From Rhynchobatus australiae (taxonomy: Eukaryota): 64,000 nt of DNA. Shown in pieces: positions 15,559-59,574 of this stretch (position 1 is its first letter; each line of letters starts with the position of its first letter). The notes under the pieces were generated by a model. That model did not search any database, was not told the DNA's origin, and saw nothing but the letters and a program-made list of their open reading frames with translations. Location: contig JAUZTB010000118.1 of the NCBI GenBank assembly GCA_034780895.1, positions 47,500,335-47,564,334 on the forward strand, written 5' to 3'. The position numbers and the translations under genes were made by a program.

Positions 15559-15598
15559 ATGGAAAAAAACGGCAGCGCCCTCAGGAGTATCCGATCAG
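15559..15598 (+). CDS. pax5: Pax5 alternative first coding exon 1A (MEKNGSALRSIRS + G)
   Basis: Strong Kozak AGTATGG and donor CAG|GTAGGT at 15599. The phase-1 end joins exon 2 as G+GG=Gly-HGGVNQ. It resembles human 1A MDLEKNYPTPRTSRTG. Confidence 0.85.
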
Positions 15599-18500
15599 GT
15601 AGGTTTATAAATCGTTCTGTGAAATGTACAAGTAATTCGCAAGCATGAAGTGGCTGCATTGACAACAATCGGGCGTTTATTTTGTAGAGTTGAACAGTAT
15701 TCAGTGGTTATAAAAAACTATCAAGACTTAAGACAATTTGTTTTTTTAAAGTGAAATATCTTAAATAATCAAGATAGCCTTTATGAACATTCAAGTCTTG
15801 GAAACTGTTTAAAGTAAATTTAATGCTCTATGAAAACTTAAAATGAACATTCAGCAGAAGTAAAAGGAAAGTATATCTCTGTGCATGGATAACGGCGATG
15901 GCACTGACGAAATGTACGGTTTCCAGGAGGTGTCTGGTTTACACTGGATTCAGAGTTTCTCCATCAAAAATGAGCTTTGTAACTTTTTTATTACTCTCTG
16001 TGGGCGATTCCGGGTACAGTGAAGATAGATCAGGGGTCATTTCTGAGGTCCAATCAGTTAATTATATTTTAAAGCAAAATTATTTCACATTTAATTGCTT
16101 TTTGTTGAACATTTTCAAAGTGTTGGTGTCACTGAGCAACAGAAAGCTGTAGGAATCTGGTCTGCAGCCGAAAGTGTTAGGAATAAAAAAAAAGCTGCAA
16201 TTCGCCACAAACTACTGCTTTCGTGTGCGAGGGAATGGGTCTGAGCTCTTGATTGTCTGTGTATATGATCGTGTGTACTTGTGCGCTCGTTGATTGAGGA
16301 TGTTTATCGAATTCTATTTTGTGCTGTTTCGCAACATAAAAATAGCCTAATGGCTGATTTCGGCGCCCTGTCACTGCCTTGTTTGCTTTGTGCATTCTTT
16401 TTTCAAATATGTGTACAGTTCGATTGATTCATTGCGGGTGGGGAGAAACTGGAAATTGCTCATTCTGGCTTCTCTTTGGGAGATTATTAGACAATCGCTG
16501 CGATTGACCTGTGGGTGAATATCTACCTTCCCCCATCCCAGCAACTGCGTTTAAGTTAGCACCGCCACTCTGTCTAAACAAAAACTCGAAATGTGAAATT
16601 AGGGTGTGGGGCGCGAGGCCCAAGGATTAACTGATCCCGTTCAAATTTGTAGATAAGCATAAACGTTCAAATTACAGCATCTTAAAAGGACAAAAGGCAA
16701 AAACAAAAACTAAACTGCCTTTAAAAAAACTGCTCTATCCTTTTCTCTGAAGATCTATGGGCCCGTCTGCCCCTAAAGACGTGTGATCATTCAGATGTAC
16801 GCCCTTGTTTTGTGCAGACGGGTGCCGCTATAGGAAAATGAAACTGAATTAAATTGACTTTTGGATTTTCATTTGCCCCTATTTTCTCTGATTAATATTC
16901 GTCGTTTGAATAATTCTAAACATTTTATCGGCAATTTTAAACCACACAGCTGCCACTTCGAGGTTTTTAACCGTGTGTTTTGAACAGAAGTAGATGGATT
17001 TGCCAATAACTTTCGTCATTGCACCAAGGCGTACTGAACCTTTAGGGTAAATCACGCTCCTTCACGGCCCTCGGATCAATTTGTCAACGCAACACCCAGT
17101 CCCGTTTCCTCCGATAAATCCAGTTTTTTTCGCTTGTAGATATTTCCTATTAAAATGCAATCCGAATATTGAATGGACGGGTGCCATTTTCATGGAACTG
17201 TTCGAACCCCCGTGCTCTGATATAGTCTAAAGTCTAGGAAATAGGACTGCAAGTATAATACAACTGGAAAGTTGTATTTGTGATCTGGTTCTTCTGTGCT
17301 TAGACTGTGAAATATTGTTTTATTTTCTTCGGTTTGTCATCTCACCTGTGGACGCAGCTGATTCCGTAAAACGACGTAATCTCCATTGAGTAGCGTTAAA
17401 TCGTTACCAATATCAATCGCCTCGATATACCGAGCACAAAACAAAACGGACGCTGAGATCTTATTGTTGTGAACAATGAGGAAGAAACAGCTTACATAAT
17501 TAGCGATAAAAGCAGGGGATGTATCGCTGTGTGAAACGGCATATAAGTTTCCGAGAATTTCAAGACACGTTTTTTTTACTCTAATTTAAACATAAATTCA
17601 ACAGGTTTGTTCACCATTCTATAAACCCAGACCAAAACGTCCATTACTTGACTTGTCAAGGATGAGGTCGGAGGATCTTCCCTCAACCTTTACCATTCAC
17701 TGCCTCACACACCTCCCACTGCCCTCGTCTCTTTTAAATATTTAATCCAGATAATAGACGACAGTTTATGTCGAGAGAATCGAGTAATTCAAGGAAACTC
17801 AATCACGAGTTCCAATTCTTAATGCAGGAAGTCCAATGCCGATGCAACTCGGTAACCGATGGCATTCTTAAAATCGCAGTTTGCCCATCACCCCTTCCTC
17901 TATTTAAAATAACACAAGGCCGTCAGCAGTCAGTTGATTTACGGGGCGCTCTTTTAACAGGACAGATTGCTCTTCCTTTCAATGACAATGCGTTAAAATA
18001 AAAGAAACAGAATAGACGATTCGCAGACTGGATCCAAAATGTTTCAATATAAAGGAAAACATCCCACATATTGACCTCAAGTACGCAGCGTATTAATTTG
18101 AAATCTGTCGCATAGTTCACGTGGAATCACCGAAAACAAAGAGACAGGGTGTGAGATCCTGTGCCCTTCACCCCCTGACTGACCCCTCCACCCTTCCCCA
18201 GTTCAACTTTCGAAAGGACCCTGCCCAGTTATCGATCATAAAGGGCACTGGTTGCCGTGCCTGACACAAGAATGAATTTGTGCCATTCTAGGACATTAGC
18301 TGCTTTTCCTGTCTGTGACCCGTGAAATAATCTATATCATTGTTTACTTTCAGCTTTCTGGCTGACAGATGACAGTGTCGAAAGCCTTTGTATCAGCACG
18401 TGCGAGTCACGCTTGTTCGGTGTGGTCGGGCCTGTTTTAAGGTGCTGCCTTTTAGTTAATTAGTTGCCCTTTTGATGATGAACTTTACATCATCTGCGTG

Positions 18501-22425: not shown

Positions 22426-25400
22426 TTCAGTGGCCAGGACTCATGTTACTGCAACCAGGGCAGGAGAAAGTTTACACTCGGTTTTAAAAATAGAATTTTT
22501 ATTTCTCAAAAATTAAAAAAAAATCAGAAGTCTTCAAGAACAGTTCATGTTATAATTTACAATTGCTTCATTATTGTCTTTTGAAGGATGGAAACAAGTC
22601 CCCTTTCCCGTACGACCTATATACGACCCCCGAACTATTCCAACAAAGGGGGGGGGGGTTAGTTCTCAAATGCTCCCCAGAATTGCCTAGAAACCCAGAC
22701 TGTTACTCTGCCCGAGAAATAATTTCAGTGTTGCCAACAACTCCCTTAAATAAAAACTCAACTCCTCCAAAGCATGGGGTATCTATACATACGCTCATGC
22801 TCTGATCTTTGACAATCAGAGCTAATCGTAAACTCCAAGCACATTTATATACAGGCCGTAATATTTCCTCATTGGTCGCATTGGCTGTGTTTTGTGATCT
22901 GTCTGTCCTCCGTGGTGAATATTCCGTGCATATATGGGGGCACACAAAATCCGCCGCAAACCAGCATCGCAATGCGGGTTAATTGGCCTCTCGCAGTACA
23001 AAGGGGTTGTCCCAACCTCTCCCTTTTTGCCGTCGCTGCTTGTGCGTCCCCAATAAAAAAAACATTCTAGACAGATACACTTGTTAGCTGTTGCTTCGAT
23101 GACACTTAGAATTAAATATTCTTCGATCAATTCAATTTTGTGTAAGGTATTTGGGATTTTAAATTCGTGATCTGGAATGAGTCAGGTATTCTCTTATCAT
23201 GAAATCACGCAAAGAGTTTCCCAACATACTTTCGATATGAACAGGAACAGAAGGGATGGATTTGAACCCGTAAAATGAAGGATGGTCTATTGCTCTTTGA
23301 GGTTTATGCCACCAAATATCCAACACGCGTAGTTTATTACTCAAGAGGTTTTTATGTCAGAAGTTATAAGTTTGAATCACTAATTAGGAAAGGCTTCTAG
23401 TTAACGATTATTGTGCAGTTTAGATAGCTCAGGCGATTGGCTTAAACACAATGGAGGTTAGGTTGACGATTTAAATCGACAATTTTGTGTATTTCTAAAC
23501 TTTAAAATCTTTTTTAACACATGAAAACGTCAAAAGTATTGGGAAAAAGTTTGACTTTTGTCTTCTATCAAGGAGAATTCTATTAGAAATAATTCGAGAA
23601 GCATAACAATTTTCAGAGCCATACAAGCGGCTGGTATTCACTGCCACTGAAGTCGGGAGGAGATTAGAACAATACAACACATTCACATTGTCTATTCCAA
23701 GTGAGTGGTACTAATGGCAAATAAAACTAAATCATAATTTAGTTTGTCCTACTAATTATATAATTTCGCCCCGCGATACCGGCAGACGGATTGTGACCGC
23801 GCAGCCCCTTTCCCGAGCCGTCACAGGATCCTAAAGGGATATGAGCAGTCAGAGCAATCCTCCCATTGAATTTCTGGACTTATGGATGGAGCCTTTGGGC
23901 AGACCCAAAGGCATTCAAGCGAGCAAGTTCCTCATCCTGCCGCCTATTCTCTCTGCACCTGTTGGCCAAAGTGTTTGAGCGTTGGGCTAAAACTTGGTCA
24001 GAAATTGAGCCTCTGTTTATTTGTAGCTGCAGCAAGACTAACAGTCAATGAAATTGGAATAGATAAAACTAATCTCTACTTGTTTGCTTTTGATAGCACG
24101 CAGAATTTTATGAAGGGCATTAACTGCTTTACTTGGATCGTGGTACCACTCCTTGGCTTGTAACACGAAGGCATTTCAAAATTACAGAGATGAATGGGTG
24201 CTTTCTTCAATTCCTTGCAAGAAGAACTAGCGACATAATAGCAACACCTCTGGGTGTCAATGTCAGAGAAAAAAAGGCCAAATTGCCCTTTAATAGTCCC
24301 ATTTGGACCCATTTGAAAACTAGCCTGGTGGACAAGGCCTCGGTTGAAGCCTCATTCACATTTAGAAATAACGTAACTATTTGTATCCATAGCACAGAAG
24401 TCCTTCGAAAAATGTAACTTCAGAGAAGTTCACACTGAGTCTCTGCTATCCAAATATTTACTGTGTTTACTAACACATTACGTCTGGCGTCAGATAGCTG
24501 TTGGAGAGGAAACTGCGAGCTTGCTGATGTGAAAACAAAGTGAGATCTTGAAAATCATTTATGCACAGCCGCAGGTGATAACTGAACACACGGCTTCAGC
24601 GAAAGCACTAAAATGGGGGAAGGGCGGCACCAGAATATTGAAATTATTAAAGACTTGGCTCAGGAACGCTGAATTAGATTAAGGAAAATACATTGAACCC
24701 CACAAAGGGGTTGCAATATCTCACCAAAGGCATTTTATTTATATTTGAAGGGTACGTCCAGTTATCACGCCCTCATTTCAGCAACACCCAGCGTCGAAAA
24801 TTTACCATATTCCTATGGTTCGATTGGAAGTTTCCATAACCCCATGAAATTCAGCCTGCTAGCTATCTCTCTATTTCTTTTATGCTCCGTCGTAACTCGA
24901 GCGTTCCATTAAAACAAAATACGGAATAACATTTTCGTTTATGATTACCCAGGTGTCTTAGAATTGTGGAAATGTTAGAAAGAAAAAAATAAGTTATCCA
25001 GCAGGTCGCGGTTAGTAACGGTGACATTTTATGTCTCTTACGTTAATATTTTACCGTATTTATAAAATGTAAAGAATTGCTGATAAACTATTAACTTATA
25101 NNNNNNNNNNNNNNNNNNNNNNNNNNNNNNNNNNNNNNNNNNNNNNNNNNNNNNNNNNNNNNNNNNNNNNNNNNNNNNNNNNNNNNNNNNNNNNNNNNNN
25201 GCTGATAAACTATTAACTTATATTTGTAGACATTCTTATGTCGATATTAAAGCAGTTGTCTGCTGAGGGGCCGAAGTTATAGTAGTGGTTAATACACAAT
25301 ACGCCATACACAAATTAACTTTTGACTTGAAATATCAAATGCGTTTTAAACATGTTTTTATTTGCTGAGTTTTACAATGAAACCTTTGAAAATTATTTGT

Positions 25401-26589
25401 TGATTTTCAGACTAAAACAACAAAGCGATTTGTTTCTATACTTTTGGCTGGCGGATACATAAGTAGTATGCATCCCACATTGATGAGCTGCTGCTGTTGT
25501 CTATTTGAAATGTCGAATCAACAAATGCAATAATTTATGAAATAGTACTGGAATTGTACGGTTATTGATTAAGAGAAGATTATCCAAAATTATCTAGTAG
25601 CTTCAATACAGACAGAGCTTATGATCCACAAATAAAAAGTACACTGTGCAAATAAGAGCAAATGTATGTGTAAATACAACTCGTACATATATTCCTGTGT
25701 GTGTAAGTACAGATGTACATCTGTGCACGTGCACGTACAGAAAAAAAATCAGCTCCCATGTGGTCTCCAGCTGCAGGTGGAAATTCAACAATAAAAGTGC
25801 CCCTCAGAGCAGGGCTAACCGCGATTACAATTAAGTCTGTGTGAGTGACCATTAAGATATTTTAAATAATGAAAATGGAGCTACGTTGGTTTAGAAGATT
25901 AACTCGTCCTGGGGTGACTTTTTTTCATAAATTCCCGGATTTCGGAGTTGACGATTCCCTAAGTGCCTGTAGTAGAACAAATATTTTATACTCAATTAAT
26001 GTTACATACTTACTAAATGATTAATGCATTTTCACTGCATTCAGCCTAAATAATAACAAAGTATCATTGGATGTGAGGCACGTTGTAAATACATGACACC
26101 TGTTAACTGTCTATAAAAGTGATTCTCTGGCTAAAGTTTTACAAAATGTTTATTAAAAGCGGCGAGTGTTTAAAACAAAATACTCAAGATCTTATATCTA
26201 TATTATAATTCGATATACAGATCGACACTTTACTATTAACAGCATTGCATTCAGTCTTTTCTTAGAATAATTTTGTAAATACATTTTGCAACAATGCCTT
26301 AATTTTGTTGTGACGCAATTGTTTCCTAGCTAATATCGCTCAGCCGTAAGTGTCAACTTTTACATTGCTTTCTTAACTGGTATTACTACTAAAGTCAGGC
26401 ACTAGAATTTTACAGACTCCTTAACTTAGAATAGAAATGAATGACTTATTTATATAAACAAAAAGAAGCAAAAAGGATTTGCTTTGGAATATAATTGTCT
26501 AAAATTATTCAAATGAAAAATTAGATTCCGTTTTGGACATTTGAATGAATTCCCTTTAATAGAGAGACGCTCCTCCAGGGTTTAACAGA

Positions 26590-26930
26590 ATGGACCAATC
26601 AGAATACAACATGAGATAACCAGTTATCAAAACGACCGCCTCGTGTAATCGCTACGACTTGCAGATAATTGGTGAACGTTAAAAAGCAGGTCCGTACGAT
26701 TGGCCAACTTTCGCAGATGAGGATGAGGGTCATTGGTGAATGAATCAGCAGCTCACACGGTGATTGGCCAAGACCTTGAGTTGGTTGGTGCTATTGGTCA
26801 ATGGGAACGGCAAAGATTGCTTGACTGGCTGGTGATGATGTGATTGACAGTAGCCGGGGCCGTGCGTCGTCCCCGCAGGGCTGAGCCTCGGGCGAATCAG
26901 CGCCGAATCACTGTGGGCTCAGCCACATTT
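26590..26930 (+). promoter_or_regulatory. pax5: Pax5 exon 1B promoter: CCAAT-box array, TGATTGACAG decamer, GC-rich segment
   Basis: CCAAT at 26595; ATTGG at 26668, 26699, 26732, 26763 and 26793; TGATTGACAG at 26841-26850; CpG-rich 26850-27000. No ATG occurs from 26941 to the 1B start at 27390. Confidence 0.75.
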
Positions 26931-27389
26931 AAACACTATGGAGGAGACTGAGCGCGACTGAATACAGAGCAGGGGGCCAGCGCACTCCGGGGAAACAGGA
27001 ACCCGCCTTTGCACACACAGCGGACAAATTGCACAGGAAAACGCCAAAAAAAAAGAAGCTGGAATTCTTAAAAGGATTTTTTTCCGGGTGTGAACGATTT
27101 CGAAGTTAAAATTCACTGCTGTCACTGAGTAGCAATTGGATTCATTTTTTGGGGGCATTGCATTGCATCTGACAAACTTAACTTTCACGTTTCTTGCACA
27201 ATCCGCCTGAAACCTTGAGGATCACAAAGCTGTAGAACCTACAATTAGTGGCTGGGATCGAGATCTTCTTCTGGGTTTGCGTGGGGCGCTGCTCACCCTC
27301 TTTTGTTTTTTGGGAGTATAGGTGAAGGGGTTAAATCCAGACCAGAAAATCGAGGTTTTCTCCGAGTTGAAGACCGGCTGCGCCTTTTC

Positions 27390-27432
27390 ATGGAAATCCA
27401 CTGTAAGCACGACCCGTTTGCAGCAATGCATA
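27390..27432 (+). CDS. pax5: Pax5 alternative first coding exon 1B (MEIHCKHDPFAAMH + A)
   Basis: Nearly identical to mammalian PAX5 1B MEIHCKHDPFASMH. Donor GTAAGT at 27433; A+GG=Arg continues into HGGVNQLGG. Confidence 0.95.
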
Positions 27433-29880: not shown

Positions 29881-30046
29881 GGCATGGCGGGGTGAATCAG
29901 CTCGGAGGAGTCTTTGTGAATGGCCGCCCTCTCCCCGATGTTGTCCGGCAGCGAATCGTGGAACTGGCCCACCAAGGAGTGAGACCCTGCGACATCTCCA
30001 GACAGCTCAGAGTGAGCCACGGCTGCGTTAGCAAGATTCTGGGCAG
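29881..30046 (+). CDS. pax5: Pax5 exon 2, paired domain N-terminal part ([55 protein letters not shown])
   Basis: Polypyrimidine tract with TACAG acceptor, donor GTAAGA at 30047, 166 nt. Confidence 0.98.
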
Positions 30047-33536: not shown

Positions 33537-36500
33537 CGGCGGCACACAGACAAAAAGAGAAAGACAGTGAATAACGCCAAGAGGGAGATTGAGACAGAGA
33601 GAACGACAGGNNNNNNNNNNNNNNNNNNNNNNNNNNNNNNNNNNNNNNNNNNNNNNNNNNNNNNNNNNNNNNNNNNNNNNNNNNNNNNNNNNNNNNNNNN
33701 NNNNNNNNNNNNNNNNNNNNNNNNNNNNNNNNNNNNNNNNNNNNCGGTAATTTAGCCAGCTTGATCCACCCGGTTTAAACAAGAATGGGCGTTTTTTTGC
33801 CGGAAGTGATTAGGTGGATGTCCTGGGCTGTGCTGTGGCCGGCTCATGCTCGGAGCAGTAAGCTAAGGCTGGAGATTCTAACAGGCACCTGACTTGGTTC
33901 TGGGAAGCAGTTGTTGTAAGCTATTAATAGGAGCATCCTGAAGGTGTCTCTGTTTGGTGAATCGTCTTTCTAGCCAGCTTTTAGTCTTTTGAACATGTTT
34001 CAGCCCCTTGTGGAGGTTCCCAGCTTTGCTTCCACTGACAGGAATAAACATTAAAAAAGGGAAATCCAAGTAACTACTATGCAAGTCTTGCCATGAATAT
34101 AATCAGGTTATTGGCCACTCTACATTTCTTTTTTTTTGACTGAATATGTCCAACGTATTTGTCAACCATTATTCATGTGGGTGATCTGTTCTGAATGGGA
34201 AGCGTGGGCTGGTTGTTTTTGTCCCGTCGTCTCCCCTGATCACTTTTCCTCTTTATTACCTATCGGTTTCTTTCCTTTTTCATTCCCTTTCTTCGTCTTT
34301 TTCACTTCCCCTCGACCAGGTTCTATCTTTCTGCGTCTGTTTTTCTGCTACAGAGGTTCTTTACATCCTTGTACTGGAATCTAGCCCACCACCATGTTCA
34401 GGACCAAGGACAGGTTGATCCCTGCTGATAGTGGAAGTCCGGGTTTACTGTTCTAAATCAATGCCCAGGATTGGGCAAAAGGCCAAAATTAACAGGATTT
34501 TTGAGACTGTCGCTCAAATTAACACCACTTTGCTGTCAACAGCGTAGACAAACTCATAGGACGCAGATTTCAATAATATTAACAGAAGAAACTCAAACAG
34601 AGAGACAAAACTAACAAGAAGTGACAGGATCTCGTGGGTGCGGTGATGAATATGACGAAAAAGTGCCATCTTAAAGGAAAAACACACATAAGCAGGGAGA
34701 AGAATGGCGGAAGGGATGTGTTTACAGTTAGGAAACCCTTTTCTAAAAGTAAAAGGTAATCAAAAGATTGAAACGCAATAACCATAGTCATTTTTGTCGC
34801 TTATGTGTGTTGCTGCCTCACGTAATGCACGCCCATTCCTTACCAGCATGAGTTCCCCATGCTTTTTTGACTCATTAAAATTAAACACTAAATATTTCCA
34901 TTCCTTTATTCGTTACATTTTATTTTAAACCTTTATCTTTGATTATTTAACTACACTGGAACGGTGTGAGATTTAGGGAGGAGAACATCATCATCAACAA
35001 CTATAATAAGAGCAACTTGCAATTATATAAATCAATCTTTCTAAACGATTACTAGATAAAGCCGTTCGTGCACGAAACGATGCAAAGCATGTATCAGGGA
35101 TAAGAATAAGCAGGACATTAAATCTTTCTTTATTTTTAGTGAAAGGCTTCCGTTGTCCTATTCACCCCAGCAATGTGAGGTGGTATTTGCAAGGTGTTCC
35201 ATGGGGATCTGAAGGTGTAGGGTTGTAGCTGGAAACGTACGGTGCATCCCATTATTCCACAAGACAGAACAATGGTCATTGGTCACCGGTCAGGTGAAGT
35301 ACGATGCTGGTTAATTCTTCAGGAAACTTTTTTACCTACCTTCTATGATTGATAGATGAAAACATTGGTAACGTGTCACCTTGGTCAAAACCTTGCTTGC
35401 AATGCAGTTAATTTCTGTGATGATTTGAGTATAATAGTTAATTGTGACCATAGTTCTTTTTAAAGAAAAGTTTATCTCTTTTTGTCCCTTTCCCGGATAT
35501 ATATTGTTTCTCGTTTGATGCTAAGAATTAAAACAGAAAATGAAGTTTTAAATTTGGCAATGGTTTCCCAAAGACAGTCCTCCATAGACTTGACTTGATA
35601 ACAAGTTTTCTAAGAGAACTCGCGTGGAATTTTATTATTCTAATTAAACACGTAGATGAAATGTACAAAATAAATCTTAATGGCAAAAAGTTTGTTCTGG
35701 CCTTCCCTTTATAGGATACATCTCCAAGACACAGCTGGAGCTTAGAGATCCACATGACGATTCTCCTGGGATTAACTGTCATAATAACTTCGAGTATATC
35801 CCACCCAGACATAGTATTGTTATTTTTCATAATTCTCTCCCAAAATTTTTTAGTCTGCTGACAAACGAAAATCGCAACGCTCACCGAAACCGTGACTGGG
35901 CGAAAGTGTTTTACAGAATCATTTCAAATGGAAAACACCTTCTACACACAAAAAAAAATGGCGTGGTGGTGGGACAGTGGGAGTGGGACGGGAAACTTGC
36001 ACTTAAAACTGCATCACATCCCTCAGAAATGTCCCCGAACTCCCCACAGACAACGTATTACTTTGAAGACCATTTACTGATATTATGTACATAATTTTAA
36101 TACATTAGAAACAATATATNNNNNNNNNNNNNNNNNNNNNNNNNNNNNNNNNNNNNNNNNNNNNNNNNNNNNNNNNNNNNNNNNNNNNNNNNNNNNNNNN
36201 NNNNNNNNNNNNNNNNNNNNTTTGTGCCCCCCCCCCCCCCGTTTATGGCGTCGTTCTCCTTAAACTCCCAGTATCTGCACGTCCTTTCAACCTCTGTTGT
36301 CCTCCCAACCCCATCCTCATTTTTCCAAATTTTGCCCCGGCTGCTTTAGTTCTCTCTTTATATTTCTGCTTTTTCTCTGATATTACAGAAATCTCAATGT
36401 CCCCCCCCACCTCCCACCATAAGTTTTGGTCATTGATGCCTGTGTCAGATATGGAGACGCAAAGGTTAAATAATCCAGACAACCGAATGACAACAGAATA

Positions 36501-37533: not shown

Positions 37534-37773
<240 letters not shown>

Positions 37774-38228
37774 TAATTGACCCTCAGCCTTCACAACACG
37801 GCGGCCTCAAGCCGTTTTTAAAAAAAAACTTTACAAACGATATTTGGAGGAAGTAAACAAGAGGATAAAAAAACCTCTGAACACTTAACATTTAAAAGTA
37901 ATATTTAGTTTCCTTCATTTTGTTTTCTAAAGAGTTGGACCCCCTAACCATGGGGTAGCTCTCTAAGTGCAGGACAAATCTAATCTCCCACTGGAGCAAT
38001 TATTTCTTAGGCTGTTACCCCTTTGATCAGTCATTGACCTCTGTTTTTACTATGTTCCTTTTTCCTAAGGAACCTCTTTCTCTCATCCCCTAATCTGTTG
38101 GCTCTTTTTCTGCTACATTTATCAGCTTCCTTCAAATTGACTGCTTTTAGTGTACAATATTTCTTTATTTCACAATCTTTGTCCTGTTGTTCACTTTGGA
38201 GATCATAAAATGTAGTTCTTTTAATTCC

Positions 38229-38853
38229 TTATTTGCACCTCTTCCACCCTGGTCTGCTGCATTCAGTGCTCACAATGTAGCCTCCTCTGCATCGGTGAAA
38301 CAAAGTGTAGACTAGGCGACTGTTTTAGCAGAGTACCTGTGCTCAAGCTTCCATTGCATGTCAGTTCAACTCCCCTTCCCACTTTCACACTGACCTGTCT
38401 GTCCCCGGCCTTCTCCATTGCCACAGAGAGGCCAAATGCAAATTCAAAGACCAGCATCTCATTTTCCACTTGGTTAGCTTAAAACCCAATGGTAGAAGCA
38501 TAGAATTTTCCAATTCCAGGTAACTGTGTTGATCTCCCACACACATTCACCTGTCCATCTAGGTTTCTCCTGCCTTTGTTCAGCTTTCCCATTCCACTCC
38601 CCCACCTGGTTCTATCTGCCTATCATCTGGAGCCTCATCTGGTTCCACTTATCACCTACCTGCCTCTATCACAGCTTTCCCTTGTACTTATGTCTACTGG
38701 CACCCTCTTCTCTCCCCTCACCTGTTGTAAGATCTTGACCTGAACCATCTACATGCACCTTTTGCCTCCACAGATGCTGTTTGACCCATTGAGTTCTTCC
38801 AGTGTTCTGTGCTTTGTTCCAGATTCCAGCATCTGCAGTCTCTTTTGTCTTCA
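38229..38853 (+). mobile_element. Penelope-like element 3' fragment: decayed GIY-YIG endonuclease plus terminal repeat
   Basis: From 38231 it translates ICTSSTLVCCIQCSQCSLLCIGETKCRLGDCF (compare VYCI.C..C...YIGET.R.L..RF). Later come GLLHC..EA..K...QHLIF.L...PNG..IEFSN and then the CACAGATGCTG...CCAGCATCTGCAGT repeat. Confidence 0.8.
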
Positions 38854-40474
38854 ACTAGATTTTCCCCATGTTGAACATTTGGCTTCTTGCATTGCCCTTA
38901 TTCACACGTATGGCCAAATTATCAGGCAGGACTTCAGATGGAACACTTACTTCTCTTGCTCAATTGGGTCCAAGACCAGTTTACCTTCTTATGACATTTT
39001 CTCATCAATTACTCTTCATTCCTGATTGCCTGTATTTGTTTAGTGAATCAAATACTGCTCCTAAAGCCTCTCATCATTCNNNNNNNNNNNNNNNNNNNNN
39101 NNNNNNNNNNNNNNNNNNNNNNNNNNNNNNNNNNNNNNNNNNNNNNNNNNNNNNNNNNNNNNCATCATGATACCCTTTAACTTGTCTGAATTTGCACTGT
39201 TGAAATTTAAAATATATAATACAGTGCATTTCTCCAAATGATTCCTTTGGTTTCTCAAAACAATAAAGTTGTTACATTTCTCCTACTTTTCTCCTTTTAT
39301 ATCTATCACTTTCAAAATCCTGGTTTGGGATCACTGATTTTAATTTCAATGCTTCTGTGCATTTTCTATACCTCTTTGCCTCATGATTTTATCTTCACTT
39401 TTAAGATCCTCCTTAAAAGTCACCCCTTTAACCATCCAGCCTAGACCTCATCATATGTTTTAGCATCTTTTCCTGTTTGATTATACTTCATGAAGTGCCT
39501 TGGAGGATTTTTATTTATGTCTGTGTGATATAAATGCAAATCATTGTTGAGTTGACCTGTTCTGTGGAGTCAGTTTCTACATTTTTTATTCTTGGTTTGG
39601 AGAAGCAATAATCTGCAGAAGGAAAACAATGGTATTTGTAGCGCATTCTTGATAAAAACCTCAGAGCAACATTGATGGAGAAATCCTAGGAACCACCCTC
39701 ATATTCTAAAATATTGTATTGAATAACTTTTCTTTTCCTATCCCAGGACAAATGAGATCAAATGGAATGTCTGCCTTGTTTACCTTCACTAACTCAGAAT
39801 AAGGGATTAAAGCAGGGACCTAACCCAACTCTGATCATAATGGCTTCCTGTTTTCAATGTTTAGATTTGATATGCTAAACTAACAGGCACCTCAAGCTAG
39901 GCTTTTCCTTTCACCAAAATGATGATCTACACCAACGTGAGGAGTTCTTAATGAAATTAAAGGTTTTACATTTGTAACAGATATGAAAAACACTGAAATG
40001 CACTATGCTAGACATACTTCAATGGCCTAGAGAGTAACAGAGGAAAGAAAACAAAGCGATTGAATCTCCCAGAAACTTTACATCAGTTGAATGTCATTAA
40101 AAAATAGTGTTGAAGCAGTCGTATACAACAGGCAGAACACGTATTGAAGGTAAATCCCAAACCTGGTTCACTGATGAAAGCAGGAGTAGTTTCACCGCTG
40201 TAACATCTTCCTGTAACAGTGGCGGCTATGATTTAGTTTCATTAATTGAATAAGAGCTACATTATTCAGCAGCATTAATAGGCCATTCTTTGTAAAGTGC
40301 TGATTACAAAACTTGTCTGCACATCAAATTGTAATAAACCTTTTATTATTAAAGAAAAGTAACATCAAATTGCATCTCTGTTTAAAAGACAAACATATAT
40401 TGCATATTCTTTGAAATCCTGGATTTGGAGTTCCCCAAACCCCTCAAAAATGTAGACTCATTTTAAAAAAAAAT

Positions 40475-40805
40475 CTGGGCATTACTAGCAAGGTGAGCAA
40501 TTATTGTCCTTTCCTAATTGCCTTTGGGAAGGCGGTGGTAAGCTGCCTTCCTAAACCACACCAGTTTATCTGATGAAGCTCCTTTCACAATGGTATTATG
40601 AGAAAATTCCATAATTTAGACCCAGCACCAATGAAGGACCTGCAATATATTCCCAATCAGGATGTGGTGTGACTTAGAGGGCAACATGCAGATAGTGGTG
40701 TTCCCATGCTCCTGCTGTCCCTTTCCTTCTGGGTGTTGGGGGCTGCAGATTTAGGAGGTGCTATGGGAGTAGCCTAGGCAAGTGACTGCAGCACATCTTG
40801 TAGAC
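40475..40805 (-). mobile_element. LINE (CR1/L2-related) 3' end
   Basis: The minus strand resembles an elasmobranch LINE C-terminus (..FRKAAYHRLPKGN*) with tail GGCAATTAGG..CAATAA.TGC. A related + copy lies at about 51101-51195. Confidence 0.55.
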
Positions 40806-40999
40806 AAGGACCGTATACCACAGAGATCAATAGCCCGGATCAATGTATCTCACAATTAGGCTGTCCCCTACCTTAAGAGACACTCAAGAAATAATGTCAC
40901 AAAGTTTACATTGAGAGTTAGAACCTTGGATCAGTGGTATTACAGTTGCTTCTGAAACTGCTTATTGGCTTCTGCACCACTCCAGTATTTGAGCACAGA

Positions 41000-43085
41000 A
41001 GGATTTTAGAATAGGTGCAGGAGCAGGCTAGGTCCTCTCATGCATGTTCCGTGATTCAATGAGTTAATGACTGAAGTGATCTTGGCCTAAACTCCACCAA
41101 TGCTCAATTCCTCGAAGGTTTAAAAAATCTATCCAAGTTCTTGACTCCCCCACTAGAGAAATCATTCTCCTGGTATCTATACTGTGAAGCCCCTTTGGAA
41201 TCTTGTTTCTTTCTAAGTTCCAGAGTCAACCCATTCTAATTCATCTTTTCTCATAATCTCTCTTCTTTACATGGAATCAATCTAGTTAACATTCTCCACT
41301 CTGCTTCCACAAAAAGCATAGTCTTACGTAGGTAGTGTTCCAGGTGTGGCATCAGTAAATCCTATCCAGCTGAAGCAAAGCCTTCCTACCTGCGTACTGC
41401 ATCCTCCTTGCGAAAAACGTCAACGTCCCAATTTGGAAATTAAGTCTCAATGAGCACCAGTATTCAAGAATAAGTTTTCTTAACTAATACTCTGCTTTTT
41501 CCACCACAGTGAAGAACTTTTAATTTCTCCATATTTGACACTATTTGCCATGGTACTCATAGAGTCATAGAGTCATACAGCATGGAAATAGGTCTTCCAG
41601 CCCACCAAGTCTGCACTGATCATCAAGCATCCATTTATACTAATCCCATTTTATTCTCCCATATTCCTATTAACTTCCNNNNNNNNNNNNNNNNNNNNNN
41701 NNNNNNNNNNNNNNNNNNNNNNNNNNNNNNNNNNNNNNNNNNNNNNNNNNNNNNNNNNNNNNNNNNNNNNNNNNNNNNCCCATATTCCTATTAACTTCCC
41801 CAGATTCTACCAGCCACCTATACTAGGGGCAGTTTCTGGTGGCCAATTCAATTACCACCCTGTACATTTTTGCGACATCAGAGGAAATTGGAGCACCCAG
41901 AACAAACCCGTGCAGTCACATGGAGAATGCACAGACAGCATCTGAGGTTAGGATTGAACCTGGGTCACTGGAGATGTGGGGCAGTAACTCTACTTGCTGC
42001 ACCACTGTGTTGCCCATTTGGTCTTTGTAAACTATTAGTGTCCTTTTCACAATTTATTTTCCATCCACCTTTGTAACATCAGAATCTTTTTTGATACAAT
42101 GTATCCAATCCCTTTGTCTATTCTTTAATATAAATTGTAAACAGATGAGAATCCAGCATTGATCCTAAAGGCACCCTTGTACTTATAATTTGCCAACCTA
42201 AAAATGAATGGTATCCCTCCTCTTTGCTTTCTGTCAGTTAACTTATCTCCTACCCTTACCAACGTATTGCTGCTAATACAATGAATCCATATCTTGTGCA
42301 GTAACTTAATGAATATCTTTTGGAAACTTAAGTACGCTACATCCACTCGTTCCCAAAGTCCATCCTGCAATGAACTCAATGAAATTTGTCAAACACAATT
42401 TCTATTTCATAAAAAAACATGTTTTCTGTGCTTAATCAGATAAGTTCCTAATTATCTGGTTACTAGTTCGCTAATAATAGATTTCAGCAATTTTTTAATA
42501 GCAGATAATAAGCCTGTAGATGATAATCCTACTTTCTCTCTCCTTCCTTCCTTGGATACATTATTATATTTCCAGTTATCCAATCTGTTGGGACTTTTCC
42601 TAGTCCAGGGAATTTATGAAGCTTATAGCCAATGCATCCACAACCCCTACAGTCAACTCCATTAGAATCCTGTAATGCAGGCCATCGGGTCTAGTGCACT
42701 TGTCAGGCTTTAGACTTATTAGTTTGTCTAGTACTTTTTCTCTCATGATGATAATGCTTTAATTTATTGCCTTCTGATATTTCTTTTGATTTTTGGCATT
42801 TTTTTCAGTATCAATCCTGAAAACAGATGCAAAATATTTATTTAACATCTCTGCTATTTTCCCATCCCCCATTATTAATTTACCCATCCCACCGTCTCAG
42901 AGGCCAATGTTTATCTTTGCTCATTGCTTCCTTTTCAAATACCTGTAGAAGCTCTTGTAATGTTTTTACTTTTCTTGCTAGTTTACTCTGATATTTCATT
43001 TTTTGCACCTTTACAAAATTTTTAATTAGCTTTTGCTGGTTTCTTATAATTCTCCCAATCATCTGGTCTACCAGTATTTTTCACA
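41000..43085 (-). mobile_element. Decayed CR1 LINE interrupted by a SINE
   Basis: Minus ORF 42125-42379 (VDVAYLSFQK.F..LL.KI....DRKQR) is RT-like. CR1 3' UTR-like text lies at about 41000-41100. Confidence 0.7.
41558..42015 (-). mobile_element. HE1-like (V-SINE) tRNA-derived SINE
   Basis: The minus strand has a tRNA-like head (GGGCAACACAGTGGTGCAGC...CAGGTTCAATCC), a V-domain-like GGTTTGTTCTGGGTGCTCC and a CR1-type tail (..GTATGACTCTATGACTCTATG). Confidence 0.8.
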
Positions 43086-46000
43086 TTGTAAGAAACATAA
43101 CCTCAGCTGATATTTCAGCACACCAGATGAAACAAGCAAAATTGATCTGCCTCTTTTGAAATGAACTTAAAAGAACCATGGACTTTTTGTGACAAAGATC
43201 TTGTGGTTCCCTTGGTGGACTGACCAACATTCATATTTTAACTCTACAGAAAACAATGAATTCCATTTCTTGTTTGTGAACTTAGTAAGAGTGCAAAATG
43301 CTGCTGGATTTACTGACATTACAAGAGTGACTACATTTGAAAAATACTTCATTCATTTTTAGGCACCATGAAGATATGAAAGACTTTTCTCTAGTGGTCA
43401 ACTAACCCTTACTCGTCCTTTACAACTAGCTCAAAAGTACTGAAGATAGGAGCCTATGACTGGATGGGCTCTATCAGCTGTCACATGATTTGGGNNNNNN
43501 NNNNNNNNNNNNNNNNNNNNNNNNNNNNNNNNNNNNNNNNNNNNNNNNNNNNNNNNNNNNNNNNNNNNNNNNNNNNNNNNNNNNNNNNNNNNNNNNNNNN
43601 NNNNNNNNNNNNNNNNNNNNNNNNAAAACATACATTGCTCTAGATCTTGAAGAAATGGCATTTAATCTGAGGACTAACTGCATCAAAACATCTGTTATGA
43701 GTAGAAGTTAAATTTTGCTCTCTCTGTCAATCCCTTCCTGAACTGTTATTTGTGATTTCCCAACCTGTAACCCCTCTGCTCCTACCCATATTCCTGTCCT
43801 TTCTCATTATAGCAATTTATTCTGGTTGGGGTTTGTGGAGGGTGCCCATTCTTCACATGAAAGTTAGGCTGCTCTCAAGGGTTAGATTTTTTTCTGGGAA
43901 AATTGTGAGCAGACCTGTAGATCCTTTGAAGCCTCCAACGTTCATTGTTGTGCATGTCACAGACTTTGTTCTCTTTGTTCAGTTGCAATGATAATATCGT
44001 GAATGTAATTGATTCTTAGTGAACTGAGTTTAGCATTTGATTCTCTCCAATGTTTGTATGATTGAGATATTATATCTGATCCAACATAAGAATGATTTTA
44101 CCCCACCCTTAAAATGCCACTGTGATTCCCTTCTAGAGTTGATAACTTTAAATCTGTCCAAATGTCAAAGGGCCACATCCTTTAATATACTTACTGAACA
44201 AAGAGAGCATGAAATAATTTGGTTAACCTCATCTCCTGCTCCTGGGCATGCCATGCTTTTATATGAATATACATCAGGCTGCGATTATATTCACTCTTGA
44301 TCAGTTTATAGCTGAGCTCAAACAGGATAGAGGATTAACCTCTAATTAGTTACCACTCATCTGGGCAATAACTGTAATGTANNNNNNNNNNNNNAAAGGT
44401 GCATTTCACTGTGTGTTTCAAGGTACATGTGACTAATAAAGATATCTTCCATCTTATTTCCAAGTCTAATGAAATGAATGGGTCTTTTGTTTTTAAACTC
44501 AATAGTTTCCATTCCAACAAGTCCCAAAATAACAGGTTATATTGAAAACTTTGCCAGAATCTTTCTGTCTCAGTTGCTTCAAATTTAATGCTACCAGTGT
44601 TTGAATTATGTACCTTGCAGGAGAATATGCGAATTTATGTTCTCATAACCCCTCTGACTCTAATCAAGCTTTATTTTGCTCTCATTTTCTCTCTTCACTT
44701 GTGTAATTAATTTCCTGGTTCTTTTGAACTCTTATAACTTAATATCCTTTCTAAATTGGGTGAACTGGACGTGTCCACGGTATGGCAAATGCAGCCTCAA
44801 CATTGAAAGGTAATTTTTGGATTGTATCTCTTGAATTCACATTTACATTCCAAATGGAGCATCTCAATGTGATATTTGGTTTCTTAACTACCATGAAATA
44901 CTGATGGTTTTAATGTGCTGTCCAGGCAAACTTAACACTGAATTTTACTTGCATTTGGCACACAATGGAACCAGGTTTCTGTTCCCACTGTTTCACTGAA
45001 ATGACTCTAACCAAAGTCAAATGGCAACTTTTGTGACTAACTTTGGTACACCATCTCCTCAATTTGTCAACCTGTGAGGAGTTTTTGAAATGGACTTCTA
45101 CCCCATCATTCCCTGTCCACCTCACCAACACGTTTCCTCCATTTCCCAGTTCAAAGAAATTTGAGTCCATTTTTATGTCCATACTTCCTCATCTATGTGT
45201 TAGATTTCCAAAACTCATCCACAGGCATAGGATCAATTTCCATATGTTTCTTAGGGGTTAAGTGGGCTAATATCCAAAGGCTTCTTTTGGATTCAGTGAA
45301 CTAATACCCACAGAGTTCTGATAGATTCATTCAACCAATACCCACTGGTTTGTGATGAGTTCAACCAATACCCACAGATTTCCAATATTCATTGGACAAA
45401 TAGCCACACTTTTTTAATACTTTCAATTGACTACGCTGGGTTTTGTGTTCAATTAGGTGAAATGATGGAATGTAAACATTACTGTAGTGACCAGACAGAG
45501 ATATGGGGACAAGAGTAAAATAGCTGCAGATTTTGATACCAAAATATACTGTATGTATGGGGACTGCAGAGACCCTTTGTTAATTCTTTGACTTTCAGGT
45601 ATGTTCTTTTGGGTGGTCTGTCTGCTGCGTCATTGAGGTGAGAAAATGTGCTCTGTGATGCATGGCCGGTCACAAGTATTAAGGGTCATTCATACCCTTT
45701 GGCTTTGGACCTTGAAGAGACACATTTCTCCTTACTGAAGACTTAGTGCGTAAGAAAGGGTACATACTTTACAAGCACCAACTTCCTTGGATATAGCATC
45801 GTTAATATGACAGAATGTCCCAATGTACTTGACTGACTATACACCGTGAACCAATAAATAATTTGGTTAGAATTGAAATTGCCTATATGGCTGCAGTTCA
45901 GTGTTACTTCTTCCCTCCCCTAATGTTGAACATTCACAGTCCTAGTCAGGAATTAATTATGATCATGCCAAGCATGACAAATGAACTTGTGTGTTCCTTG

Positions 46001-46132
46001 TCCTTGAAACTCAATCCTTCTTGGAAAGCCAGCAATGACAGATCCAGATTGATTTTCCACAGGAGAATGTTTTGCATCTTGGTTTACAATGTCTCTAAAC
46101 TAACTAATCCTTGTTGTCATTGATACCCGTAG

Positions 46133-46264
46133 CACCAAGCACTGTGCCAGTGACTCCAATTCCTTCTGCTGCCACAGATTCAGCGGGATCTTCCTACTCC
46201 ATCAGTGGAATTCTGGGAATCACACCATCTAATAATGAGAATAACAAGAGAAAACGCAATGAAG
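46133..46264 (+). CDS. pax5: Pax5 exon 5 (octapeptide exon: [44 protein letters not shown])
   Basis: Branch-like CTAAC/CTAAT near 46100, acceptor CGTAG|C, donor AAG|GTAAGT at 46265. [17 protein letters not shown] and NKRKR match Pax5. Confidence 0.93.
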
Positions 46265-46688: not shown

Positions 46689-46837
46689 GGTAAAACTTCT
46701 ATTTTTTNNNNNNNNNNNNNNNNNNNNNNNNNNTGCATCATGTTGACATTGACAAAATATAGCAAAGTGAAAATTAACGTTCAAATTTCTTATCATTTAT
46801 AAACAACAACTTCAAAATCCAATCCACAATCCAGACA

Positions 46838-48268
46838 AAGATCCAAAATTGACTTGGTCATAGAAGACAGAATATAGTGGTGGAGGGGTGTTTCTCTGAC
46901 AGGAGGTCTGTGACTGGTGATGTTCCGCACAGATCAGTGGTGGGACCTCTGTTGTTTGTGATATGTATAAATGATCTGGACGAAAATGTAGGTGTGCTGA
47001 TTGGTAAGTTTGCAGATAACATAAAAATTGGTGGAGTTGTAAATAGTGAGCAAGGTTGTCAAAGGATACAGCAAGATATAGATCAGTTGGAAATTTGGGG
47101 TGGAGAAATGGTGCATGGTGCTTGCTCCAGATGTGTCAAGTGTTGCATTTTTGGGAGGTAAGAGGAAATTATACAGTAAATGGCAGGACCCACAGGATCA
47201 TTGATGGTCAGAGGGATCTTGGGGTGCAAGTCCATGGCTCCCTGAAGGTGTCTACACAAGTGGATAGAGTGGTAAGGAAGGCATACGGCATTCTTGCCTT
47301 CTTCAGTTTGGGGCATTAAATATAAAAGTTGGGAAGTCATGTTGCAACTGTATAAAATATTGGTTAGGCCACATTTGGATTATTGTGTGCAGTTTTGGTC
47401 ACCGCACTATAGGAAGGGTGTGGAGGCTCTGGAGCGGGTTAGGGTTAGGAGAGGTTCACCACCAATCACCTAACTCTCCTCTTACCCCTTCCCTTCTCTA
47501 CCCAGCTCCATCTGCCTATATTTTTTTCCTTAAGTGTTTTCACCTGTCACCTACAAGACTCTGCCTACCCTCCTCCTCCCCTACCGGCTCCATCTGCCCC
47601 TCATCCAACCTCGTCTGGTTCCAGCTATCACTTCCTGGCCTCTTGTCTCATCCCTCATTCTTATTTCTATATTCTCTCTACACTCTCAGTCTTGATGCAA
47701 AATTTTGACTCAAGATGTTGACCATCCCTTTGCCTCCACAGATATTGCTTGACCCATTGAATTCTTCCAGCAGTTTGTTTATTTGCTCCAGATTCTGGCA
47801 CCTGCAGTCTCTTGTGTCTCCATCCACCAGGATGTTGACTGGATTGGAGAGTGTTAGCTATAAGGAGAGGTTGGACAAACTTGGATTGTTTTCTCTGGAG
47901 CGTCAGAGGCTGAGGGATGACCTGATAGAAGTTTACAAGGTAATAAGTGGCATAGATAGTCGGAGTCTTCTTCCCCAGGGTGGAAATATCAAATACGAGA
48001 GGGGATAGGTTTAAGGTGAGGGGGGAAAGTTTAAAGAAGAGTTGTGAGACAAGTTTTTTACACAGGGTGTGGTAGGTTCATGGAATGCATTGCCATAAGC
48101 AGATATGAAGGTAAAGTTTAAGAGACATTTGTACAGATACATTAACAGGCAGGGAATGGACAGATACAGATCTTGGGCAGGCAGATGGGATTAGTTTAGA
48201 CTGACATCATGGTCAGTACAGACATGGTGGAACGAGGGGCCTTTTCAGGTGATGTGTTGTTCTATGTT
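46838..48268 (+). mobile_element. 5'-truncated CR1 LINE (RT C-terminal half and 3' UTR)
   Basis: ORFs 46877-47161 (VP..SVVGPLLFVICINDLD..KFADNIK), 47056-47319 (QRDLGVQVH) and the end of 47715-48008 (SYKERLDKLGLFSLE..RLR.DLIEVYK). Tail TTCTATGTTC. Confidence 0.9.
47461..47823 (+). mobile_element. Penelope-type terminal repeat nested in the CR1
   Basis: Similar to 38530-38853. It splits the CR1 text AGGTTCACC|AGGATGTTG. Confidence 0.75.
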
Positions 48269-52179: not shown

Positions 52180-52590
52180 GTCAGGGGACACGAGAGTGAG
52201 TCAGCGCCTTCAGAGGTGGTTGCAGAGAGGGTCAGCACCTTCAAGGGGTGGGAGAGGAAGTCAGCACCTTCAGGGACTGCAGGAGAGAGTCAGTGCCTTT
52301 GGGGCATGGGAGAGAGAGAGTGAGCACTTTCACAGAGTGGAAGAGAGGGTCAGCACCTTCAGTAGTTGGAGAGAGAGGTAACATCTACAGGGATAAGAGT
52401 GAGTGAGTGTAAGGATGTAGAGGGTAGGGTGGGGTGGACTCAGCACCTTATGGTGTCAGCACCTTTTGTGACGTGCCAGATAATCAATAATTTCATGGAT
52501 TTGAGAGAGGGTCAGCAGCTTCAGGGGGTGGGAGAGAGTGTTTACACCTTCAGGGTTATAATAGAGTCTAAAGGGGAAGGGAGAGAATGT
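52180..52590. repeat. Degenerate ~30-bp minisatellite (GTCAGCACCTTCAGGGGTGGGAGAGAG-like)
   Basis: TCAGCACCTTCA-type units recur near 52200, 52231, 52260, 52289, 52320, 52349, 52440 and 52512. Confidence 0.85.
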
Positions 52591-59400: not shown

Positions 59401-59574
59401 CACTGGAGCCAACAACATGGTACGAATTTAGCTCCTTTTTCTCTCTGGAAAAAGAACAGATCATGATTTTGAAAATTTTAAAAGATATTAAGAAAACTAA
59501 TTAAAACAAATTGCTCAGCACATTGAAAAAATCATACATTGAGAGACAGGCCAGCAAATTGAGGAAGGAAAGCA

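Follow-up and report, generated by a model that had tools for sequence, protein, structure and literature searches.

A row of five NF-Y-type CCAAT boxes at three-turn spacing with an inverted PBX-PREP decamer upstream of Pax5 exon 1B in a ray

Promoters with several same-orientation CCAAT boxes placed about three helical turns apart have been described for cyclin B2, with three boxes ~33 bp apart (PMC3287175), and for AURKA, with two boxes ~30 bp apart (PMC9448500). Four NF-Y boxes are present in the bidirectional Mrps12-Sarsm promoter, and NF-Y reads CCAAT in either orientation (PMC1802594). The mouse Sp2 promoter combines five CCAAT boxes in 150 bp with PBX-PREP decamers (bioRxiv 10.64898/2026.02.16.706105). 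According to the available part of the same preprint, the cooperative DECA-CCAAT element carries GAnnGAC, 11 bp and CCAAT on one strand (10-12 bp being tolerated), and flipping the half-sites turns the TALE dimer round; NF-Y has a footprint of ~30 bp, bends DNA by ~80 degrees and acts in excluding nucleosomes and choosing start sites. Across the human genome, the distances within CCAAT pairs have their maxima at 19, 24-28, 35-37 and 43 bp and not at 30-33 bp (PMC4889920, available part).

The human PAX5 1B promoter is TATA-less (PMC2504290), with expression in brain, testis and B cells (PMC2504290, PMC9456430). In the mouse, Pax5B is low and constant across B-cell stages, and the drivers of this broad, low-level promoter are poorly known (PMC6132355). 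The available portions of PMC2504290, PMC9456430 and PMC6132355 do not describe a CCAAT array or NF-Y at mammalian PAX5 1B. Our literature search found none at Pax5 1B either; two papers on the human 1B flank (PMC39201, PMID 12513807) may already describe boxes there.

Here we analysed a stretch of 64,000 nucleotides from Rhynchobatus australiae (the window). Judging by exon structure and peptide matches the gene that it carries is Pax5, with the following parts:

15559 to 15598, plus strand: coding part of Pax5 exon 1A, start codon at 15559, 11.8 kb 5' of exon 1B
27390 to 27432, plus strand: coding part of Pax5 exon 1B, 14 codons with a GTAAGT donor, start codon at 27390
29881 to 30046, plus strand: Pax5 exon 2, first half of the paired domain
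37534 to 37734, plus strand: reading frame of Pax5 exon 3, second half of the paired domain, best solved-structure match PAX5
46133 to 46264, plus strand: octapeptide-containing Pax5 exon, best matches ray and skate Pax-5

Exons 1A and 1B both have a GT donor and splice in frame to exon 2. The exon 1B peptide is identical to the N-termini of ray and shark Pax-5 and to the rows for Xenopus, zebrafish and Fugu in Table 1 of PMC6132355. Over 43 residues of the octapeptide exon, identities amount to 39 with ray and skate Pax-5, 37 with sharks, 32 with chimaera and 28 with mouse. The sequences of the paired domain and the octapeptide exon, with the alternative exons 1A and 1B, identify the gene as Pax5 and not as Pax2 or Pax8. 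A short exon corresponding to approximately residues 137-150 of ray Pax-5 was not detected by tblastn between exon 3 and the octapeptide exon (37740-46130); it may fall below scoring length or into an assembly gap. Exon 1A matches an annotated bamboo-shark isoform in 11 of 13 residues, and 1A-type N-termini are also found in frog, turtle and emu proteins. Exon 1A has been said to appear with mammals only (PMC6132355), which these sequences and the present one, taken as they read, contradict. Elsewhere in the window, a 29-bp tandem repeat of 5.7 copies lies at 52193-52362. Reading frames at 61-585 and 46800-48100 resemble what we take to be decayed LINE reverse-transcriptase fragments.

Upstream of exon 1B the following elements are found:

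26595 to 26599, plus strand: CCAAT box in the orientation opposed to the array, 73 bp 5' of box 1, flanks 5/6
26668 to 26672, minus strand: CCAAT box 1 (ATTGG on plus), flanks 3/6, the weakest
26699 to 26703, minus strand: CCAAT box 2, flanks 5/6
26732 to 26736, minus strand: CCAAT box 3, flanks 4/6
26763 to 26767, minus strand: CCAAT box 4, flanks 5/6
26793 to 26797, minus strand: CCAAT box 5, flanks 4/6
26822 to 26831, either strand: ambiguous site 6 (ACTGG at 26824), CCAGT on minus in register with the boxes or a two-mismatch PBX-PREP decamer on plus
26841 to 26850, plus strand: exact PBX-PREP decamer (DECA) TGATTGACAG, inverted relative to the canonical DECA-CCAAT composite
26801 to 27000, no strand: GC- and CpG-rich stretch, 58-61% GC compared with 25-37% upstream of 26600
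26938 to 26961, plus strand: seven-codon upstream reading frame, its ATG being the only one from the decamer up to the start codon of 1B

The original prediction, made from the sequence of the window, had listed five same-strand ATTGG pentamers and a degenerate ACTGG with gaps of 31, 33, 31, 30 and 31 bp, and had read 26841-26850 as a PBX-PREP decamer. These positions, gaps and the match to the decamer consensus all proved exact; the strong reverse CCAAT box at 26595 had been overlooked. With five boxes in one orientation and one reversed, the locus exceeds the at least two boxes within ~200 bp that define a multi-box element. The ATTGG pentamer is not enriched in the window as a whole (157 observed, 186 expected).

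To estimate the chance level of the array we shuffled the window 300 times in blocks of 1 kb, preserving dinucleotides. In 96 of the shuffles the longest same-strand ATTGG chain at 30-33 bp was a single box, in 203 it was two boxes and in one it was three, and a chain of four or five at this spacing never occurred (0/300). Allowing any 4-bp spacing band from 8 to 63 bp yielded a chain of four in 1/300 shuffles and a chain of five in 0/300, and five ATTGG boxes inside 130 bp were not seen in any of the 300. Given five boxes over 125 bp, gaps as even as those observed came up in 79 of 322,427 draws. When all pentamers of the real window were considered, only three chains of five were obtained, namely the ATTGG array and two simple repeats.

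The NF-Y flank consensus is YRRCCAATSRG. Scored against this consensus, the six perfect boxes reach a mean of 4.33/6, and the remaining 151 pentamers one of 2.50 (P 0.00065, 20,000 draws). This is further reflected in a purine at -1 in 6/6 perfect boxes and in 67/151 other pentamers. By the same consensus the flanks of the perfect boxes are thus of the NF-Y type. The weak flanks of box 1 and the non-CCAAT site 6 would point against NF-Y reading the full array. Site 6 appears not to be a CCAAT box as such and is ambiguous, its alternative reading being the decamer with two mismatches. Two ATTGG boxes 9 bp apart, with flanks of 6/6 and 5/6, lie in intron 1 at 22871-22884, too close together for two NF-Y trimers, and a short ACCAAT triple repeat occurs at 834-853.

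The array gaps correspond to 2.86-3.14 helical turns, and boxes 1-5 deviate by at most 34 degrees from one helix face (at 10.5 bp per turn). At 30-33 bp the gaps have the spacing of the cell-cycle class, compatible with joint NF-Y binding. As 31 bp is three turns and also one NF-Y footprint, sequence alone cannot tell phasing from packing, and either helical phase or the ~30-bp footprint may account for the spacing. The analogy to cyclin B that had been drawn for the array holds for the spacing and nothing beyond it: compared with cyclin B2 and AURKA the ray locus has five boxes, not two or three, belongs to a developmental transcription-factor gene, has no convincing CDE/CHR and carries a TALE decamer at its downstream end. 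Like the Mrps12-Sarsm promoter, it has NF-Y boxes of differing strength arrayed on one strand; unlike there, no divergent partner gene was found in the window, and regular spacing is not reported in the available text of PMC1802594.

The sequence TGATTGACAG is the sole exact TGAnTGACAG in the window on either strand, and an exact decamer would fall by chance within 200 bp of any chosen position with a probability of ~0.0014. An exact decamer beside a five-box cluster within ~150 bp is also a property of the mouse Sp2 promoter. However, unlike in the canonical DECA-CCAAT of that promoter, the Pax5 decamer shares its strand with ATTGG, at a distance of 12 bp from site 6 and 43 bp from box 5. A decamer core 10-12 bp 5' of CCAAT on the same strand was found at 0/7 boxes (the best case having two mismatches), and no CCAAT-like sequence is present 9-13 bp 3' of the decamer. 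Its orientation is the reverse of that in the published DECA-11 bp-CCAAT, so the Sp2-bridged element is not what is present here, and the NF-Y/PBX-PREP composite implied by the original prediction is unsupported on both strand and distance. As far as its letters tell, the locus has the ingredients of the composite yet is not a member of the Sp2-bridged class. Within the window, the canonical DECA-CCAAT geometry is matched exactly at a single site, 63678 (minus), and two decamers relaxed to TGAnnGACAG lie in later introns at 34507-34516 (minus) and 59540-59549 (plus).

The 1B start codon follows the five boxes at a distance of 722-597 bp, and the array is at the upstream edge of the GC- and CpG-rich stretch, which is likely the core promoter. 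The earlier placement at a Pax 1B promoter is borne out as to the gene, Pax5, and to a position upstream of exon 1B, both given by the exon structure; the proximal promoter would be a tentative reading for elements 540-720 bp off the start codon. TATA[AT]A is absent from 26500-27400, so that the ray region and mammalian PAX5 1B, the downstream promoter at the same exon of the same gene, are both TATA-less (PMC2504290). ERSE, E-box, GC box, full NFI site and CRE, by their usual motif definitions, are likewise absent from 26500-27400. No CCAAT box occurs within 900 bp upstream of the 1A start codon. The upstream reading frame has A at -3 and G at +4 and would be relevant only if transcription begins 5' of it. 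An RNA hairpin search of 26855-26965 gave a z of -1.15, with 24 of 200 shuffles equally stable, and a bacterial promoter scan, irrelevant here, was at chance level. A 9-bp perfect inverted repeat is located 3' of the decamer at 26879-26925; the 111-nt segment around it folds no more stably than shuffled sequence. Across most of a ~30-kb span that takes in both first exons as well as exon 2 (8000-37500), CpG is not depleted, whereas it is depleted in the rest of the window, a pattern resembling a large unmethylated domain.

Published binding data provide a partial check. In mouse ES cells a 50-fold Prep1 peak maps to Pax5 intron 1 (chr4:44,716,862-44,717,939, mm9; PMC4395233 S1 Table), at a distance of 5,894 bp from the Pax5 start position that the study adopted. 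Acetylation at the mouse 1B promoter peaks at +7 kb, resolved to 1 kb (PMC6132355), which together with this distance places Prep1 within ~1 kb of 1B. Pax5 is silent in these cells and unchanged without Prep1 (RPKM 0.069 and 0.077; PMC4395233), which fits poising. Neither Pax2 nor Pax8 has a row among the 3,902 peaks of the same table. For NF-Y the outcome was negative: among the matches listed from mouse fibroblast NF-YA, -YB and -YC lists (1,204, 4,156 and 1,790 rows) there is no Pax5 row, nor is Pax5 among those listed from the Sp2 re-expression peak lists in mouse fibroblasts (PMC4368557, available part). The matches listed from the fibroblast data also contain no chr4 row at the coordinates tried, where the build of the lists may differ and one coordinate set rests on an assumed offset (PMC4368557). 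Pax5 is probably silenced in fibroblasts. The supplements of PMC4694823 (22,584 characters) do not contain Pax5.

Among zebrafish TALE/NF-Y elements at developmental genes, a Prep peak assigned to pax5 lies 4.4 kb from the annotated start (PMC6023610). As in the ray, a decamer and CCAAT occur near pax5 (PMC6023610; bioRxiv 720102). The 200-bp zebrafish peak, inspected by eye, has one CCAAT and no ATTGG, and the CCAAT is on the strand of the decamer, 83 bp upstream (PMC6023610). With this single box and no array it differs from the five-box row of the ray and is a putative counterpart only. Eight elements including this one were cloned; the five with activity in fish do not include it (bioRxiv 720102, available part). 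One 12-mer is common to the zebrafish peak and to 26948-26959 of the window, inside the upstream reading frame, and occurs once in ~4 Mb of peak text; the chance of such a shared 12-mer for a random 200-mer is ~0.9%. It is upstream of the decamer in zebrafish and downstream in the window, and as it was picked post hoc and is non-colinear we do not count it as orthology. Four zebrafish pax5 primers placed at the array gave a score of 58, equalled there by 55 of 150 shuffled primer sets. Their best joint placement, at 17550-17890 on the minus strand, scored 78, the maximum of the null, and has no decamer.

Taking these data together, the array is real, and it is likely a functional NF-Y-type multi-CCAAT promoter element. 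We put the probability at roughly 70% that the five boxes and the decamer form the upstream part of the Pax5 1B promoter, where several NF-Y trimers and PBX-PREP would keep the region nucleosome-free. NF-Y as the binder is suggested by the flanks. Gaps of 30-33 bp would let trimers with ~30-bp footprints pack without clash, and would place the bends, ~80 degrees each, on almost one face of the helix. Because the decamer is inverted, PBX-PREP is proposed to bind it independently, without an Sp2 bridge. Both factors are ubiquitous and could hold the upstream border of the promoter open, poise 1B and fix the position of the downstream start, while tissue-specific input would come from enhancers. 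Such poising would fit a 1B promoter that is active more broadly and at a lower level (brain, testis, B cells), with 1A, boxless here, as the B-cell promoter.

A bolder version of this arrangement, which we consider improbable, is that NF-Y trimers bound in phase at the five boxes bend ~155 bp round into a closed, nucleosome-sized loop that replaces a nucleosome at an ancestral 1B, with box 1 meeting site 6 and the decamer. PBX-PREP and NF-Y would then contact each other across the loop, not side by side. In a rigid-kink model with 80 degrees per box and six parameter sets, in which protein bulk is ignored, the ratio of end-to-end distance to contour is 0.05-0.20 for the observed gaps compared with 0.76-0.79 for gaps of 26 or 36 bp, and none of 400 random gap sets (25-38 bp) is equally compact. 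Adding 5 bp to one gap opens the modelled loop (0.44-0.53), and adding 10 bp recloses it (0.07-0.28). The DNA collides with itself in 5/6 parameter sets, so full occupancy may be impossible.

Several other explanations were weighed against the reading as a 1B promoter element bound by NF-Y and PBX-PREP. The spacing could be the relic of an ancient tandem amplification of a ~31-bp unit with one CCAAT, the phase itself having no role; this concerns origin, is compatible with NF-Y binding and is possible, if unlikely. All five perfect array boxes share the 9-mer ATTGG[CT][CG]AA, TT stands at -4/-3 in 5/5 of them compared with 17/151 elsewhere, and the 9-mers of boxes 1 and 3 and of boxes 2 and 4 are identical. 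Owing to this common 9-mer, the spacers show a weak likeness when their flanks are included (equalled by 128 of 3,000 shuffles), and the original statement that they are unrelated applies once the flanks are removed, when 2,098 of 3,000 shuffles score equally well. That the array is not a tandem repeat is corroborated by these flank-less spacers and by TRF, which reports none at the array. A second copy elsewhere within the window was not found (best E 0.61), so that neither related units nor further copies, as expected of a repeat or repeat-borne array, are seen in the window. We also tried a 64-bp dimer unit and rejected it, as 947 of 3,000 shuffles were as good once the cores were fixed. 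Even under a tandem origin, cores and lengths that stay intact while the spacers diverge fully would imply selection.

It is rather improbable that the NF-Y-bound element is an intronic enhancer or an antisense or non-coding promoter instead of the 1B promoter. The distance from the 1B start codon and the orientation of the boxes away from Pax5 would suit such a role, for which there is precedent in NF-Y/TALE elements that work as zebrafish enhancers (bioRxiv 720102) and in bidirectional promoters biased by CCAAT arrays (PMC1802594). However, the GC- and CpG-rich stretch lies on the exon 1B side of the array, with the GC-poor DNA upstream, NF-Y is functional in both orientations (PMC1802594) and Rfam families have 0 matches in the window. 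The boxes might also be read by other factors, such as TALE dimers on TGATTGG variants, NFI at half-sites or other homeodomain proteins. A validated Prep1 site at Fgf4 includes ATTGG (PMC4395233), site 6 and box 4 are two and three mismatches from the decamer, and TTGGCCAA is present in boxes 2 and 4; as boxes 1, 2, 3 and 5 are 4-6 mismatches away, the full NFI palindrome is absent and the flanks match the NF-Y type, we find this decidedly doubtful. A cell-cycle promoter of the CHR/DREAM kind, to which the spacing similar to that of the cyclin B class and a TTTAAA (the cyclin B1 CHR variant) at 26928 would correspond, is very improbable: this hexamer occurs 73 times in the window, TTTGAA/TTCAAA is absent between the array and exon 1B, and the low, constant level of mouse Pax5B across B-cell stages (PMC6132355) does not fit. 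A functionless chance cluster is extremely improbable, despite the single genome, the single window and the post hoc spotting of the pattern, considering that 0/300 shuffles reproduced it with any spacing band included and that neither flank quality nor position depends on the spacing.

The Pax5 1B array is not a new kind of system: multi-CCAAT promoters, including a five-box one with decamers, are already known, and what is unusual here is the length, the regularity and the inverted decamer. Its near-perfect phasing over five boxes makes it a good natural substrate for separating helical phase from footprint packing. For Pax5, the array would name NF-Y and PBX-PREP as candidate factors at 1B and would connect the 1B region with a mouse Prep1 peak that had been overlooked; it also suggests that 1A and 1B may differ in their basic promoter design.
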